Below are positions 2,243 to 7,561 of a stretch of 8,231 nucleotides of DNA, in pieces. The stretch's first letter is position 1; the number at the start of each line of letters is the position of its first letter. The stretch comes from a virus (Duplodnaviria > Heunggongvirae > Uroviricota > Caudoviricetes). A program made the position numbers and the translations under genes. The stretch lies in the IMG/VR virus record IMGVR_UViG_2671180695_000017. The stretch is one strand, 5' to 3'. Under the pieces are notes generated by a model. The model saw only the letters and a list, made by a program, of their open reading frames with translations, was not told the origin of the DNA and did no database searches.

Positions 2243-3525
2243 GTGCGGGTATTACTTCGACCTGTTCTGGTACCGGAACTCGGGCTGGTGATCGTTAAGC
2301 CGGGCCGTGAATCCATGCCGGTATTCCACAATACCCGGGTACTGGTGGAGCCGGAACCGAAAAGCATGCGTAATCTGTCGTCCGGGGTCGTTCCTGCCGT
2401 TCGCCAGCCGCTGGCGGAGGATAAATCATTACTGCCATTTTTCAGCGACGAACGAGTGATTCGTGCTGCTGGTGGCGCTGGCGCATTGTCTGACTGGTTA
2501 CTGCGCCATGTTAAATCCTGCCAGTGGCCACACGGCGATTATCACCACAGTGAAACCGTCATTCACCGTTATGGTACCGGCGCAATGGTGTTGTGCTGGC
2601 ACTGCGACAACCAGCTGCGCGACCAGACCTCCGAATCACTCGGGCAACTTGCTCACCAAAACCTGTTTGCATGGATGATTGACGTCATACGCCATGCAAT
2701 GAATGGCTCGCAGGAACGGGAATTATCGCTGGCTGAATTATCCTGGTGGGCGGTCCGCAATCAGGTGGCGGACGCGCTACCGGAAGCGGTATTACGTCAG
2801 GTACCGGCGCAATGGTGTTGTGCTGGCACTGCGACAACCAGCTGCGCGACCAGACCTCCGAATCACTCGGGCAACTTGCTCACCAAAACCTGTCTGCATG
2901 GATGATTGACGTCATACTCCATGCAATGATTGGCTCGCAGGAACGGGAATTATCGCTGGCTGAATTATCCTGGTGGGCGGTCCGCAATCAGGTGGCGGAC
3001 GCGCTACCGGAAGCGGTATTACGTCGTTCGCTGGGGTTGCGTGCGGAAAAAATCCGCTCAATGTACCGTGAAAGCGACATCGTACCGGGAGAGCAGACCG
3101 CCACCAGCATACTGAAGCAGCGCACAAAAAATCTTGCGCCGCTGCCTCACGCCCACCAGCAAAACCCGCCACAGGAAAAGACGGTGGTCAGCATTGCCGT
3201 TGATCCGGAGTCACCGGCTCAGTATCTCCAGCGCCAGAAATCACAACGGGAAGAGATGCCTGTATACACGCGTTGGGTAAAAACGCAGAAATGCATGACG
3301 TGTGGCAATCAGGCAGATGATCCGCATCACATCATTGGTCATGGACTGGGAGGGATGGGAACAAAGGCTGATGATTTGTTTGTTATTCCGCTGTGCCGTA
3401 AATGCCATAGCGAACTACACGCCGGGGTAAAAGATTTTGAAGAAAAACACGGCAGCCAGCTGTTGTTGCTGATTCGTTTTTTAATGCACGCGAGAAATTC
3501 GGGTGTTTTGAAGTGGAAAGCATAA
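2243..3525 (+). pseudogene. YbcO-like (DUF1364-type) zinc-binding putative nuclease gene with N-terminal extension, frame-disrupted by a 227-bp tandem duplication
   Basis: GTG at 2243 with GGAGG at 2234-2238. The frame-2 ORF 2243..2905 and the frame-1 ORF 2746..3525 encode the same ~75-aa stretch (GTGAMVLCWHCDNQLRDQTSESLGQLAHQNL...AVRNQVADALPEAVLR) because 2573-2799 is repeated at 2800-3026 (227 nt, equal to 2 mod 3). Removing one copy gives a single continuous 351-codon ORF ending at 3525. The C-terminus (CMTCGNQADDPHHIIGHG...IPLCRKCHSELH) has a CxxC...HH...CxxCH motif and sits directly upstream of rusA, as ybcO does in DLP12. Confidence 0.55.
2573..3026 (+). repeat. Tandem direct duplication, 2 x 227 bp, 3 mismatches between copies
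   Basis: Direct comparison: 2573-2799 and 2800-3026 are identical except three substitutions (ctgtTtgc vs ctgtCtgc; atacGcc vs atacTcc; atgaAtgg vs atgaTtgg). Junction ...attacgtc|ag|gtaccgg. Confidence 0.9.
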
Positions 3526-3906
3526 ATGACTGAACGCATAGAATTTGTTTTGCCTTACCCGCCAACGGTGAACACTTACTGGCGTCGTCGTGGCAGCACA
3601 TATTTTGTATCAAAAGCCGGGGAGCGTTATCGCCGGGCAGTGGCGCTTATTGTTCGCCAGCAGCGGCTGAAATTAAGCCTGTCCGGAAGGTTGGCAATAA
3701 AAATTATTGCAGAACCACCGGATAAGCGCCGCCGTGACCTGGACAATATTCTGAAAGCGCCGCTGGATGCGCTGACGCATGCGGGGTTGCTAATGGACGA
3801 TGAGCAGTTTGATGAAATCAATATCGTTCGTGCTCAGCCAGTATCTGGTGGACGTCTGGGGGTGAAGATTTACCCCATAATGCTTGAAGGGCAGGTCAAA
3901 AAATGA
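3526..3906 (+). CDS. rusA: RusA-family Holliday junction resolvase
   Basis: 126-aa protein with PPDKRRRDLDNILKAPLDALTHAGLLMDDEQ and GGRLGV, matching the conserved RusA core as I recall it for E. coli RusA ([23 protein letters not shown]...DD...GGRL). The ATG overlaps the upstream stop (TAAATG). Confidence 0.85.
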   Translation: MTERIEFVLPYPPTVNTYWRRRGSTYFVSKAGERYRRAVALIVRQQRLKLSLSGRLAIKIIAEPPDKRRRDLDNILKAPLDALTHAGLLMDDEQFDEINIVRAQPVSGGRLGVKIYPIMLEGQVKK

Positions 3907-4724
3907 AACTGGAAGATTTACCGAAATACTACTCCCCAAAATCCCCCGGCCTGACTGATGCATCGGCCTCAACGTCGAAAGATGCGCTGAGTATCACTGA
4001 TGTGATGGCCGCGCAGGGCATGACACCGAATCGGGCTGAGATGGGGTTTTCTGCGTTCCTTGGGAAAATGGGCATTAGTATGAATGACAGAGAGCGGGCA
4101 ACAGAATTGCTGACAGAATATGCACTCAGTCGGTGTGATCGCGTGGCGGCGTTAAGAAAACTCCCGGCAGAAATAAAACCGGTAGTGATGCGCATTATGG
4201 CTTCGTACGCTTTTGAGGATTATGCCCGCAGCGCAGCGAGTAAAAAGCAGTGCCCTTGTTGCTATGGGGAAAAATTTATTGAAAGCGTAGTTTTTACAAA
4301 CAAGGTCCAGTATCCGGATGGTAAGCCGCCGGTATGGGCAAAGTGTACGAAAGGTGTGTATCCGTCTTACTGGGAAGAATGGAAAAAAGTCAGGGAGGTG
4401 GTAAAAGTTGCCTGTCCGGAGTGTGGCGGAAAGGGTGAGGTTTCCACCGCCTGTAAGGATTGCCGTGGGCGTGGTGTCGCCATTCATCGTGAAGAGTCGG
4501 TAAAACGTGGTATGCCTGTTATCAGAGACTGCCAGCGTTGTGGTGGTCGTGGCTGTGAAAGACTACCATCAACGGAGGCATTTAATGCCATATGCAAAGT
4601 GACGAGTGCTATCACGCTTGATACGTGGAAAAAATCAGTGAAACGCTTTTACGATACGTTGGTGGTTCGGTTTGACATTGAAGAGGCATGGGCGGAGCGG
4701 CAGTTAAAGAGGGTAACGCGATAG
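3903..4724 (+). CDS. Putative late-gene antiterminator (Q-like) with DnaJ-type CxxCxGxG zinc-finger repeats
   Basis: Position is diagnostic: directly after rusA (ATGA overlap) and directly before a promoter that matches lambda PR' through its -10 and initial transcribed region. The protein carries CPCC plus three CxxCxGxG repeats (CPECGGKG, CKDCRGRG, CQRCGGRG). The N-terminus resembles what I recall of Qin-prophage Q homologues, but that recollection is not secure. Confidence 0.55.
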   Translation: MKLEDLPKYYSPKSPGLTDASASTSKDALSITDVMAAQGMTPNRAEMGFSAFLGKMGISMNDRERATELLTEYALSRCDRVAALRKLPAEIKPVVMRIMASYAFEDYARSAASKKQCPCCYGEKFIESVVFTNKVQYPDGKPPVWAKCTKGVYPSYWEEWKKVREVVKVACPECGGKGEVSTACKDCRGRGVAIHREESVKRGMPVIRDCQRCGGRGCERLPSTEAFNAICKVTSAITLDTWKKSVKRFYDTLVVRFDIEEAWAERQLKRVTR

Positions 4725-4729
4725 TGTTG

Positions 4730-4770
4730 TTGATTTTTCCCGAATCTGTGGTAAATTTGCTCTAACGATG
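4730..4770 (+). promoter_or_regulatory. Late promoter PR'-like with sigma70-dependent pause element (likely Q-utilisation region)
   Basis: TTGATT (4730-4735), 16-nt spacer, TAAATT (4752-4757), then AACGATGGG (4764-4772). The stretch GGTAAATTTGCTCTAACGATGGG closely parallels lambda PR' as I recall it (GGTAAATTTGACTCAACGATGGG), including the -10-like AACGAT in the initial transcribed region. Confidence 0.5.
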
Positions 4771-4805
4771 GGCGTTTTATGCCTGACGTTAGAAGATTTT
4801 TTACA

Positions 4806-4830
4806 CCCCGCCGCCTGGCGGGTTTTTTAT
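4806..4830 (+). terminator. tR'-like intrinsic terminator downstream of the late promoter
   Basis: Stem CCCGCC / GGCGGG (4807-4812 pairing with 4817-4822), GCCT loop, followed by TTTTTT (4823-4828). Lies ~45-65 nt downstream of the predicted late start, so a short terminated transcript is expected without Q. Confidence 0.6.
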
Positions 4831-4950: not shown

Positions 4951-5148
4951 ATGCTAAAACAGCAGGATATGACAGAAACCGCCAGAGTAGTGTTTAATGA
5001 ATTAAGCGTTACCGAACCGGCGACAGTCGGGGAGATTGCACAGAATACTTACCTTTCACGCGAACGCTGCCAGTTAATACTGACCCAGCTGGTTATGGCG
5101 GGTCTGGCAGACTATCAGTTCGGTTGTTACAGACGCCTTCCGCAGTGA
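4951..5148 (+). CDS. Small putative winged-helix DNA-binding protein (65 aa)
   Basis: ATG at 4951 with AAGGG SD about 8 nt upstream. I prefer this over the tracked GTG at 4864, which has no SD. The stretch TVGEIAQNTYLSRERCQLILTQLVMAGL looks like a helix-turn-helix or winged-helix recognition region. First gene of the Q-dependent late transcript. Confidence 0.45.
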   Translation: MLKQQDMTETARVVFNELSVTEPATVGEIAQNTYLSRERCQLILTQLVMAGLADYQFGCYRRLPQ

Positions 5149-5160
5149 AGGCTTTTTTAT
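5135..5160 (+). terminator. Intrinsic terminator overlapping the stop codon of the small wHTH gene
   Basis: Stem GCCTTC / GAAGGC (5135-5140 pairing with 5147-5152), loop CGCAGT, then TTTTTT (5153-5158). The TGA stop (5146-5148) lies inside the hairpin. Confidence 0.5.
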
Positions 5161-5298: not shown

Positions 5299-6348
5299 AT
5301 GCTTAATACTGTAAAAATATCCAGTTGTGAGTTAATCAACGCCGACTGCCTGGAATTTATCCGGTCGTTACCCGAAAATTCTGTTGACCTGATAGTCACG
5401 GACCCGCCGTACTTTAAAGTGAAGCCTGAGGGCTGGGATAACCAGTGGAAGGGCGACGATGATTACCTGAAGTGGCTGGACCAGTGTCTGGCGCAGTTCT
5501 GGCGGGTGCTGAAACCTGCCGGAAGTCTTTACCTGTTCTGTGGTCATCGCCTGGCATCTGATATCGAAATCATGATGCGTGAACGCTTCAGTGTGCTGAA
5601 CCATATTATCTGGGCGAAGCCGTCCGGACGCTGGAACGGATGCAACAAGGAAAGCCTGCGGGCGTATTTCCCCGCCACAGAGCGCATTCTGTTCGCGGAA
5701 CATTATCAGGGGCCGTATCGTCCGAAAGATGCCGGGTATGCGGCGAAGGGCAGTGCACTGAAACAGCATGTGATGGCCCCGCTGATTTCTTACTTTCGTG
5801 ATGCGCGCGCGGCCCTGGGGATAACGGCAAAACAGATTGCAGATGCCACAGGAAAGAAAAACATGGTGTCGCACTGGTTCAGTGCCAGTCAGTGGCAGCT
5901 ACCGAACGAAAGCGATTATCTGAAATTACAGTCGCTGTTTGCCCGGGTGGCAGAAGAGAAACATCAGCGCGGTGAACTGGAAAAGCCCCACCACCAGCTG
6001 GTGGATACGTATACGTCACTGAACCGGCAGTATGTGGAGCTGCAGAGTGAATATAAGCATCTGCGGCGGTATTTTGGTGTGACGGCGCAGGTGCCGTACA
6101 CGGATGTGTGGACACATAAACCGGTGCAGTTCTATCCCGGGAAACATCCGTGCGAAAAACCGGCAGAAATGCTGCAGCAGATAATCAGCGCAAGCAGTCG
6201 TCCGGGTGACCTGGTTGCAGATTTTTTTATGGGCTCAGGTTCAACGGTAAAAGCTGCACTGGCGCTCGGGCGTCGTGCGATTGGCGTTGAACTGGAGACC
6301 GGACGTTTTGAGCAGACAGTCAGGGAAGTTCAGGATTTAATCGTTTGA
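5299..6348 (+). CDS. Orphan DNA methyltransferase, beta-class (DPPY motif IV N-terminal, FxGxG motif I C-terminal); probably N6-adenine-specific
   Basis: DPPYF at residues 35-39 (nt 5401-5415) and FFMGSGST near the C-terminus (around nt 6224-6247), in the circularly permuted order typical of beta-class amino-methyltransferases. No restriction endonuclease gene is adjacent. Confidence 0.85.
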   Translation: MLNTVKISSCELINADCLEFIRSLPENSVDLIVTDPPYFKVKPEGWDNQWKGDDDYLKWLDQCLAQFWRVLKPAGSLYLFCGHRLASDIEIMMRERFSVLNHIIWAKPSGRWNGCNKESLRAYFPATERILFAEHYQGPYRPKDAGYAAKGSALKQHVMAPLISYFRDARAALGITAKQIADATGKKNMVSHWFSASQWQLPNESDYLKLQSLFARVAEEKHQRGELEKPHHQLVDTYTSLNRQYVELQSEYKHLRRYFGVTAQVPYTDVWTHKPVQFYPGKHPCEKPAEMLQQIISASSRPGDLVADFFMGSGSTVKAALALGRRAIGVELETGRFEQTVREVQDLIV

Positions 6349-6397: not shown

Positions 6398-6473
6398 GGC
6401 CCTTTAGCTCAGTGGTGAGAGCGAGCGACTCATAATCGCCAGGTCGCTGGTTCAAATCCAGCAAGGGCCACCA
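6398..6473 (+). tRNA. tRNA with CAU anticodon, closest to E. coli tRNA-Ile2 (lysidine type, reads AUA); phage ileZ-like
   Basis: Manual cloverleaf: acceptor GGCCCTT/AAGGGCC, D-arm GCTC-AGTGGTGA-GAGC, anticodon loop CTCATAA (CAT at 6431-6433), T-arm GCTGG-TTCAAAT-CCAGC, discriminator A plus encoded CCA. Very similar to E. coli ileX as I recall it. Position 27-43 is an A-C mismatch. Confidence 0.85.
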
Positions 6474-6480
6474 TCACAAA

Positions 6481-6560
6481 CCGCCATTAGCTTATCAGGA
6501 AGAGCAGACGACACGATAACAGGGTTGTTGGTGCGGGGGCGGGTCCCCGATGGCGGTCCA
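6481..6560 (+). pseudogene. Degenerate tRNA-like element between the two tRNAs (possible decayed argN-type tRNA)
   Basis: A 7-bp acceptor-like stem (CCGCCAT 6481-6487 pairing with ATGGCGG 6550-6556) followed by TCCA, a plausible D-arm (GCTT-ATCAGGAA-GAGC) and a 5-bp GC T-like stem (6534-6538 / 6545-6549). But the T-loop is 6 nt (GCGGGT, not TTCRANY) and I could not fold a canonical anticodon arm. Confidence 0.25.
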
Positions 6561-6573
6561 TTATCGGTATTCA

Positions 6574-6650
6574 GCGTTGTTAGCTCAGCCGGACAGAGCA
6601 ATTGCCTTCTAAGCAATCGGTCACTGGTTCGAATCCAGTACAGCGCGCCA
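6574..6650 (+). tRNA. tRNA-Arg (anticodon UCU, reads AGA/AGG); phage argO/argN-like
   Basis: Manual cloverleaf: acceptor GCGTTGT/ACAGCGC (one G-U pair), D-arm GCTC-AGCCGGACA-GAGC, anticodon stem ATTGC/GCAAT with loop CTTCTAA (TCT at 6608-6610), T-arm ACTGG-TTCGAAT-CCAGT, discriminator G plus CCA. Resembles E. coli argU. Confidence 0.85.
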
Positions 6651-6757
6651 TATTCATTCTTCCAGATTCCTTTCGGCAGAGCCTTATACTGAAATATACC
6701 TGGCTCAGGATATTGTTGAAAATATTATATGTTTGTCAAAAATAAAAGTTCTGTTAA

Positions 6758-7114
6758 GTGTTGATTGAGTGTTTGTTATACGGTCTAATGGTTTTTTCAG
6801 CATTAAATATTTATCATTCATATGGTGTGGGTAGAGTGAATATTGATGAGGCGTCGGGGTGTTTCATCCTTAGGCAGCGTATTGATATAGTCAATGCAGA
6901 ACGAGCAAAGGCCTTCAGCCGTTTGACAGTTTTGTTCTGTACTCCTGATCGTCTTTCGGGAAGAGACGTTATTATTCTGAATAGTGATGCTATACAGAGG
7001 GTTTGCGATGAGTTCATGGTTGCTAATTCAGAATTATTTGCTCTTGTTCAGGAGTACAACAGAATAGCCAGGACCTGTGGTATGGATGAACTTCGGATTA
7101 CTCATCTGGGGTAG
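6758..7114 (+). CDS. Hypothetical cargo ORF (up to 118 aa; start uncertain)
   Basis: Longest ORF in the AT-rich island. Candidate starts are GTG 6758, ATG 6788 and GTG 6836 (the last with a weak GGGTAGAG SD-like element); none has a convincing RBS. No recognisable motif. Confidence 0.3.
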   Translation: MLIECLLYGLMVFSALNIYHSYGVGRVNIDEASGCFILRQRIDIVNAERAKAFSRLTVLFCTPDRLSGRDVIILNSDAIQRVCDEFMVANSELFALVQEYNRIARTCGMDELRITHLG

Positions 7115-7194
7115 ATACATATCTGGATTATCACCTGTTACGGTAAAAAGTGATTGCTTACTGTTTTTGTGAATGGCATTGCAGCAGCCGGATA

Positions 7195-7281
7195 ATGTCA
7201 GTGCTGGCTGACGGTGTGCTGGTGGCGGGTGTGGTGGTTGCTGCTTTCCCGTTGCTGAAAAAGAAAACGCCAGACTGTTAG
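7195..7281 (+). CDS. Candidate small hydrophobic peptide ORF (28 aa) in the ORF-poor cargo spacer
   Basis: ATG 7195 to TAG 7279-7281 encodes MSVLADGVLVAGVVVAAFPLLKKKTPDC, a hydrophobic helix-length segment followed by KKK. The SD is weak (GGA 2 nt upstream), so this may be a chance ORF in GT-rich sequence. Confidence 0.15.
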   Translation: MSVLADGVLVAGVVVAAFPLLKKKTPDC

Positions 7282-7505
7282 CCGGGTATCAGTTAGCGGG
7301 AGAAATTTTTAAATACTTCACAATTCAGGCGGTTGATTGTTGTCTGGTTTGCGGGGAGTTTGTTAAAAGAAACTGGCATGGTGAATCCCCCTGTGCGGAG
7401 GGGCAATCAGCGAGTAGGTATATGGGATAATCGCGGATTCAGGTGCTGGTACTGAATTCACCGGGAGGCACCCGGCACCATGCAATGGCACATAGCGCCA
7501 CTCTC

Positions 7506-7535
7506 CAGCCCCTCTCCGGAGGGGCTGTTTATATT
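7506..7535 (+). terminator. Strong intrinsic terminator (+ strand) between the convergent cargo ORFs
   Basis: Perfect 9-bp GC-rich stem CAGCCCCTC / GAGGGGCTG (7506-7514 pairing with 7519-7527), TCCG tetraloop, followed by TTTATATTGATTTT. The opposite strand lacks a T-tract after the hairpin, so it is oriented to stop + strand transcripts. Confidence 0.55.
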
Positions 7536-7561
7536 GATTTTGTCAGATGTGAGTAAACTCC

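Follow-up and report, generated by a model that had tools for sequence, protein, structure and literature searches.

A lambda-type late antiterminator Q with an enlarged arm and a likely second Cys4 ribbon in a lambdoid Escherichia coli prophage

Phage Q antiterminators fall into three families, PF03589 (the lambda Q family), PF06530 (Q21) and PF06323 (Q82), and the folds of Q21 and Q82 are unrelated to that of lambda Q (PMC9388147). Lambda Q is composed of a four-helix body with a helix–turn–helix (HTH; residues 61–113 and 153–207), a zinc-ribbon arm (residues 114–152) and an N-terminal segment (residues 1–44) that forms the torus; the arm contacts positions 11–13 of the Q-binding element and its tip contacts region 4 of sigma, and substitution of L202 or T206 near the C terminus impairs antitermination (PMC9388147). 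Ribbon residues 110–112, 117 and 122–126 contact the zinc-binding domain (ZBD) of the beta′ subunit of RNA polymerase (RNAP; preprint of PMC9388147), and Q binds the promoter spacer, partly between the −35 and −10 elements (PMC6266700). Here we describe a gene of this kind in an 8,231-nt stretch of DNA from a caudoviricete virus (IMG/VR record IMGVR_UViG_2671180695_000017), hereafter the window. Its open reading frame (ORF) 3903–4724, on the plus strand, encodes 273 amino acids (aa) plus a stop codon, and the product is very likely a lambda-type late Q of a lambdoid E. coli prophage in which an enlarged arm carries a likely second Cys4 ribbon.

A first-pass annotation of the window had proposed an antiterminator here from the position of the gene and had named profile searches and structure prediction as checks; position, family and predicted fold all agree with that proposal. 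The ATG start codon shares the tetranucleotide ATGA with the stop codon of rusA, the RusA gene (PF05866 in a Pfam scan) lies directly upstream, and a PR′-like promoter (4730–4757) followed by a terminator (stem at 4807–4822 and a T run) lies downstream. In Pfam, the product scores 169 bits against PF03589, ‘Antitermination protein Q’ (cutoff 26.7 bits), and the scan gave no match to the Q21 (PF06530) or Q82 (PF06323) families at E ≤ 0.01. PHROG 127, ‘anti-termination protein Q-like’, matches the product end to end (E 2e-110), and the top matches among Protein Data Bank (PDB) sequences in a phmmer search are lambda Q chains (7ubm_Q, E 2.2e-38). In these alignments, residues 1–113 correspond to lambda Q 1–113 and residues 182–273 to lambda Q 116–207, and collinearity extends over all 207 lambda residues. 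A full-length AlphaFold 2 (AF2) model built from a 60-sequence alignment has a mean predicted local distance difference test (pLDDT) score of 78.1 and a predicted template-modelling (pTM) score of 0.61; pLDDT is low for residues 1–27, in keeping with the disorder of this segment in free lambda Q. In a Foldseek search of the PDB with this model, lambda Q structures take the first eight places, led by 7ubn_Q (E 5.5e-13, template-modelling (TM) score 0.72 on the target). RefSeq genes that carry the annotation ‘antitermination protein’ (WP_000762914.1 among them) share 99.9% DNA identity with this gene, identical proteins are encoded on IMG/VR prophage contigs, and close copies (at least 80% identity) are present in 2,495 of 5,426 complete E. 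coli genomes. Taken together, these data identify the product, almost certainly, as a late-gene antiterminator Q of the lambda family. The N-terminal segment retains the conserved G39, and L268 and T272 correspond by alignment to lambda L202 and T206.

The cysteines of the protein are arranged in four knuckles, A to D. The first-pass annotation had noted three CxxCxGxG repeats and a CPCC motif, and all of these are present: the only strict CxxCxGxG motifs in six-frame translations of the window are the three in this protein, and none of 20,000 shuffles of its sequence contained three or more. The CPCC motif belongs to a fourth, degenerate knuckle, CPCCYGEK, which reads CxxCxGxK here and is a full CxxCxGxG in relatives (CDCCSGQG in HK225 and CSCCKGRG in ST104), which brings the number of knuckles in the protein to four. 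Across 60 homologues (55–94% identity), none of the eight knuckle cysteines varies. C184, C187, C210 and C213 align with the lambda zinc ligands C118, C121, C144 and C147 and are kept in family representatives, and knuckles C and D are, by this alignment, the lambda zinc ribbon. In line with this, AF2 predicts a strand–helix–strand between C and D, as in B1–H3–B2 of lambda Q (PMC9388147).

The same comparison changes how the resemblance to DnaJ is to be read. In lambda Q, the zinc ligands are provided by CRDCHGTG and CGRCKGVG, both of them CxxCxGxG motifs, and the two share one zinc. Against PF00684 (DnaJ_CXXCXGXG; cutoff 32.7 bits), lambda Q itself scores 23.1 bits (residues 113–152 on model positions 14–52) and the window protein 26.2 bits (E 1e-5; residues 171–217 on model positions 1–51). 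Because the lambda ligands lie in two such motifs and lambda Q gives a sub-threshold match of its own, the lambda paradigm is already DnaJ-like at the motif level. The contrast first drawn between DnaJ-type repeats here and a single C4 finger in lambda therefore falls away, as two of the three repeats, CKDCRGRG and CQRCGGRG, align residue for residue with the lambda finger. The accompanying suggestion that the zinc module differs from that of lambda Q holds for its size, the region being enlarged by a 68-aa insertion with two more knuckles, but not for its kind: the insertion is an elaboration of the lambda module and a common state of the family, present also in YdfT/QuuQ of E. coli K-12. The DnaJ-like motif is indeed a known property of lambda-Q zinc ribbons, flagged by InterPro and Pfam, where precomputed annotation of homologues places PF00684 beside PF03589, and remarked on in passing for gp45 of Acinetobacter phage Loki, a lambda-Q-like protein (PMC5313236).

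The point at which the insertion enters, between the equivalents of lambda residues 113 and 116, is where the body joins the arm and falls within the patch that contacts the beta′ ZBD. With the insertion, the arm measures about 105 aa, compared with 39 in lambda Q (39% identity overall), and it gains two CxxC knuckles and a long hairpin. Both the full-length AF2 model and a model of the arm alone (residues 108–224) predict strands at residues 125–136 and 159–170 between knuckles A and B, forming a long hairpin of 12 + 12 residues with a small helical tip. The insertion probably forms a second Cys4 zinc ribbon or site, in which the extra knuckles would bind zinc. A BLASTP comparison of residues 112–181 with residues 182–223, made as a test of internal duplication, gave E 0.001 over 29 residues, which is similarity at the level of the motif only, and profile–profile alignment of the insertion with the lambda ribbon (hhalign) gave a 14-column match centred on a knuckle at a probability of 21%. 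The two PF03589 stretches in the product were considered as evidence of duplication and dismissed, as lambda Q also shows two.

How the four knuckles pair is less firmly indicated, and we somewhat favour A with B and C with D. Four observations lead to this preference: the lambda homologues of C and D share a single zinc in the crystal structures (PMC9388147); 40 columns of the arm-only model can be superposed on the lambda Q arm at 2.1–3.5 Å; the DnaJ hidden Markov model (HMM) puts C and D on DnaJ motifs 2 and 3, a zinc-sharing pair in that protein; and the predicted strand order sets A beside B and C beside D. The same antiterminator could instead use a nested, DnaJ-like pairing in which B and C hold one zinc and A and D the other, leaving the long form without a lambda-type C–D site. 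In support of such nesting, the five-residue spacing between B and C matches that of anti-TRAP (RtpA), a 53-aa single-zinc protein in which two adjacent CxxCxGxG motifs share one zinc, and residues 167–195 match anti-TRAP weakly (PDB 2bx9, E 0.031 over 29 residues only; NCBIfam NF058604, 19 bits against a cutoff of 65; Pfam Anti-TRAP, E 0.02–0.06 in relatives). Foldseek also returned weak matches to DnaJ-type cysteine-rich domains, namely DnaJA2 (E 0.12–0.42), BSD2 (E 0.58) and DNAJA3 (within E 0.1–0.6), none of them significant. All of these anti-TRAP and DnaJ matches lie below threshold, however, and the four observations that favour A–B and C–D speak equally against nesting, which we regard as unlikely. 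With A paired to B and C to D, the arm would resemble a cysteine-rich domain of the DnaJ type whose ‘motif 1’ finds its partner on the N-terminal side.

Several points weigh against a lambda-type Q with a second ribbon of this kind. The arm-only model is mediocre (pLDDT 71.6, pTM 0.37), and a Foldseek search of the PDB with it gave nothing at E ≤ 0.001, so the arm is not assignable to the DnaJ cysteine-rich fold either. The proposed A–B pairing draws on predicted secondary-structure order and on the homology of C and D to lambda. Searchable literature yielded no experiment on this protein and no characterization of a long-form Q, of QuuQ or of Q together with DnaJ motifs. Finally, the host prophage may be defective, given a frameshifted neighbouring gene and a degenerate transfer RNA (tRNA), and expression in the strain is not assured.

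The distribution of the long form bears on whether the extra knuckles matter. An exhaustive, profile-free search of 1.84 billion representatives returned 228 clusters, and we counted knuckles in the 46 near-full-length representatives among the top 150, a list skewed toward the query’s own form: 29 have at least four knuckles, 6 have two, like lambda Q, and 11 are degenerate or partial. The long form is thus the majority state among the family representatives in this skewed list. Four knuckles are kept in representatives down to about 25–35% identity, the third often reading CxC rather than CxxC in long forms (CR-CRGRG). Family members differ widely in the distance from A to B (14–63 aa), and both of these knuckles are still present in representatives P0126 and P0134, in which only about five residues of the hairpin are left. 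The hairpin is therefore variable and dispensable while the extra knuckles remain, which argues for selection on the site itself. These data also speak to the view that the gene, though intact, lies idle as a relic of prophage decay, its extra knuckles being neutral decoration. That view can appeal to the neighbouring DUF968/ydfU-like gene, frameshifted by a 227-nt tandem duplication, to the degenerate middle tRNA of the downstream cluster and to the great variation in A–B hairpin length; yet the ORF is intact, its eight cysteines are invariant, close copies abound in E. coli, and long-form Qs of the same architecture are annotated as Q at the same position in viable phages (HK225, ST104, Eho49 and SPN3UB), all of which makes an idle relic highly improbable.

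Hardest of all to credit is a DnaJ relative at the Q position, with the cysteine-rich region acting as a DnaJ-like chaperone or thiol-oxidoreductase module instead of, or besides, an antiterminator: the motif resemblance, the PF00684 E value and a homologue named ‘chaperone protein DnaJ’ would suggest it, but the PF00684 score is below cutoff, the DnaJ equivalog TIGR02349 (NCBIfam DnaJ_bact) reaches 21.9 bits where its cutoff is 377.2, Pfam finds neither a J domain nor a DnaJ C-terminal domain in the product at E ≤ 0.01, the whole protein is collinear with lambda Q, and the same PF00684 match, again below threshold, is obtained with lambda Q, which is a proven antiterminator. The product is not a DnaJ. 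The homologue so named (P0046, from Serratia quinivorans) is a 258-aa lambda-family Q protein, 58% identical to the window protein, and its CxxCxGxG motifs probably gave rise to a mistaken name; it serves as a warning against naming proteins from these motifs.

The gene is followed by a PR′-type cassette (Table 1). We called the promoter by its homology to lambda PR′; a scan for consensus promoters called none, as TTGATT/TAAATT scores 8/12, below the scan threshold. The cassette is of the same type as in lambda, with identical −10 and pause elements, whereas the sequence of the promoter spacer differs. The terminator stands about 40 nt beyond the pause element and about 45 nt from the transcript start, compared with about 190 nt from the start in lambda. 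The same layout is found at all lambda-family Q loci that we fetched (lambda, P22, HK225, ST104, Eho49, SPN3UB, RAH1 and 720R4), and the P22 record annotates the promoter, qut site and terminator as such. Across 78 related IMG/VR loci, which are close relatives only (93–100% identity), the block from the −35 element to the terminator is a conserved island between diverging flanks; within it the spacer is almost invariant, and the terminator keeps its stem while the loop varies. The spacer TTTCCCGAATCTGTGG has near-identical counterparts in HK225 and Erwinia phage Eho49, the Q proteins of which are 61% and 52% identical to the window protein, and differs from the lambda/P22 spacer T(A/T)TTGAATAAA(A/G)TTGGG, a pattern that would fit a subfamily-specific Q-binding element. 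The predicted terminated PR′ transcript of about 65 nt (4764–4828) comprises a conserved 5′ hairpin (4764–4790) and the terminator hairpin, has a minimum free energy of −21.9 kcal/mol (z −2.45) and is nearly invariant in the 78 loci; a role as a small RNA, of the kind described for PR′ leader transcripts of other prophages, is conceivable.

Given the homology to lambda Q, we expect a lambda-like mode of action. Q would bind a Q-binding element within the spacer of the PR′ promoter beside its gene and engage RNAP that sigma-70 holds back at AACGATGGG, the pause element close to the promoter, and the modified polymerase would then pass tR′ (4807–4828) and later terminators into the late genes, reaching a small ORF, a DNA methyltransferase gene (5299–6348), a tRNA cluster and, further on, the lysis genes. 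In such a complex the insertion, with C117/C120 and C171/C174 flanking the beta-hairpin, would precede the lambda ribbon (C184/C187 and C210/C213) in the arm expected to contact DNA, sigma and RNAP. As the insertion enters where the lambda ribbon touches the beta′ ZBD and leaves the body, its probable effect is to create or remodel contacts with RNAP or promoter DNA that are specific to the cassette of the subfamily. Such a contact might be made where body, arm and beta′ ZBD meet, or might involve the DNA that separates the two half-sites.

Table 1. Coordinates in the window of the Q gene, the parts of its product and the downstream promoter, pause element and terminator
Feature	Coordinates	Strand	Evidence
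Q antiterminator gene, lambda-Q family	3903..4724	+	PF03589, PHROG 127, 7ubm_Q, AF2 model against 7ubn_Q, RefSeq identity
N-terminal segment (nozzle/torus-forming region in lambda Q) and first two body helices, aa 1–113	3903..4241	+	1:1 alignment with lambda Q 1–113
Insertion relative to lambda Q, aa 114–181: knuckle A, long predicted beta-hairpin, knuckle B	4242..4445	+	Absent from lambda Q and P22 gp23
Knuckle A, CPCCYGEK, C117/C120, aa 117–124	4251..4274	+	Motif scan; invariant in 60 homologues
Knuckle B, CPECGGKG, C171/C174, aa 171–178	4413..4436	+	Motif scan; invariant in 60 homologues; DnaJ HMM motif 1
Counterpart of lambda Q ‘arm’ (zinc ribbon, lambda 116–152), aa 182–218, knuckles C and D	4446..4556	+	Alignment with lambda C118/C121 and C144/C147
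Knuckle C, CKDCRGRG, C184/C187, aa 184–191	4452..4475	+	Aligns with lambda C118/C121
Knuckle D, CQRCGGRG, C210/C213, aa 210–217	4530..4553	+	Aligns with lambda C144/C147
Second body half with helix–turn–helix and C-terminal helix, aa 219–273	4557..4721	+	Aligns with lambda Q 153–207
PR′-type late promoter	4730..4757	+	Aligned with lambda and P22 PR′
−35 element, TTGATT	4730..4735	+	Alignment with lambda/P22 PR′
16-nt spacer TTTCCCGAATCTGTGG, candidate Q-binding element	4736..4751	+	Alignment; putative Q-binding role
−10 element, TAAATT	4752..4757	+	Identical to lambda −10
Sigma-dependent pause element AACGATGGG, transcript start	4764..4772	+	Identical to lambda PR′ element, same 6-nt distance from −10
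Intrinsic terminator tR′, stem CCCGCC/GGCGGG (4807–4822), loop GCCT, T run to 4828	4807..4828	+	Stem kept and loop varying in related loci

The surroundings of the gene show further features. Upstream, the window carries a gene for epoxyqueuosine reductase QueH (722–1408; PF02677, E 1e-65) in the early-right region, an unusual cargo beside replication and nin-type genes, and a hok/sok type I toxin–antitoxin locus (1476–1801), in which the Rfam sok match spans 1476–1651 (120 bits) and a HokD-like ORF ends at 1801; its placement parallels the hokD…ydfU–ydfT order of the K-12 Qin prophage. The DUF968/YdfU-like gene contains the 227-nt tandem direct duplication mentioned above (2573–2798 and 2800–3025, copies 99% identical) and, as 227 is not a multiple of 3, is split into overlapping ORFs 2243–2905 and 2746–3525; the closest genome (L001) has a single intact gene of 1,056 nt. 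Downstream of tR′, the first ORF (4951–5148, about 65 aa from the ATG at 4951) has a weak TrmB-like HTH match and is followed by a terminator-like hairpin (5135–5152). The N6/N4 DNA methyltransferase gene (5299–6348; PF01555, E 2e-44) is among the first genes after tR′ and would therefore be under Q control. Beyond it lies a tRNA cluster (6398–6650) with a tRNA of anticodon CAT (6398–6473; tRNA-Ile in a related genome) and tRNA-Arg(TCT) (6574–6650); the middle tRNA-Arg of L001 has a counterpart whose central part has diverged here and which is called by neither ARAGORN nor Rfam. The arrangement is ileZ–argN–argO-like, as in the late regions of Stx-type phages, and no toxin genes follow. Further downstream, 6663–7306 is without a counterpart in the L001 locus, and a full-length Rfam match to the small RNA STnc100 occupies 7347–7536 (132 bits).

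For annotation, these results carry little weight: the gene, its Q family and its DnaJ-like motif are already recorded in public databases, and its annotation is correct in thousands of genomes. Their value for the mechanism of Q antitermination is modest, and lies in the fact that structural work has all been done on the short lambda Q, whereas the long form is prevalent in Enterobacteriaceae prophages, including ones with late-operon tRNAs and, in related phages, toxin genes. We suggest, tentatively and as a possibility only, that long-form Qs, which make up the majority of the family representatives and occur in about half of E. coli genomes, have a two-zinc arm with a contact that is absent from the lambda paradigm, lambda Q being a reduced form. 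Were this so, the extra contact might be made with the beta′ ZBD, sigma region 4 or the promoter DNA that separates the two half-sites of the Q-binding element; the present structural model of how Q loads would then be incomplete for most family members. The extra module may also help to set the specificity between Q and promoter among co-resident prophages.

Among known systems, the closest structurally described relative is lambda Q (with P22 gp23; PDB 4MO1 and 7UBJ–7UBN), which has in common with the window protein the PF03589 domain, the nozzle segment, the four-helix HTH body, the four ribbon cysteines and the C-terminal helix. Q21 and Q82 occupy the same genome position and play the same role, without sequence match to the protein described here. 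The DnaJ/Hsp40 cysteine-rich domain (PF00684) also has four CxxCxGxG-type knuckles (here three canonical ones and CPCCYGEK), and the predicted two Cys4 sites are alike, with B, C and D aligning to DnaJ motifs 1, 2 and 3. In DnaJ, which has a V-shaped hairpin fold here, zinc 1 is held by motifs 1 and 4 and zinc 2 by motifs 2 and 3; in the window protein, by contrast, the partner of ‘motif 1’ lies on its N-terminal side with a long hairpin between them, an order permuted relative to the 1-2-3-4 nesting of DnaJ. The same four knuckles as here recur in the long-form Qs HK225 gp65 (61% identity) and ST104 gp23 (45%; 257 aa) and in E. coli K-12 YdfT/QuuQ of the Qin prophage (‘putative antitermination protein Q’, 250 aa, 43% identity), the last in a similar neighbourhood (hokD…ydfU/DUF968–Q). 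The A–B hairpin is shorter in YdfT and ST104 gp23 than here, and some relatives have a CxC third knuckle; the architecture of the K-12 protein is that of the Q described here.

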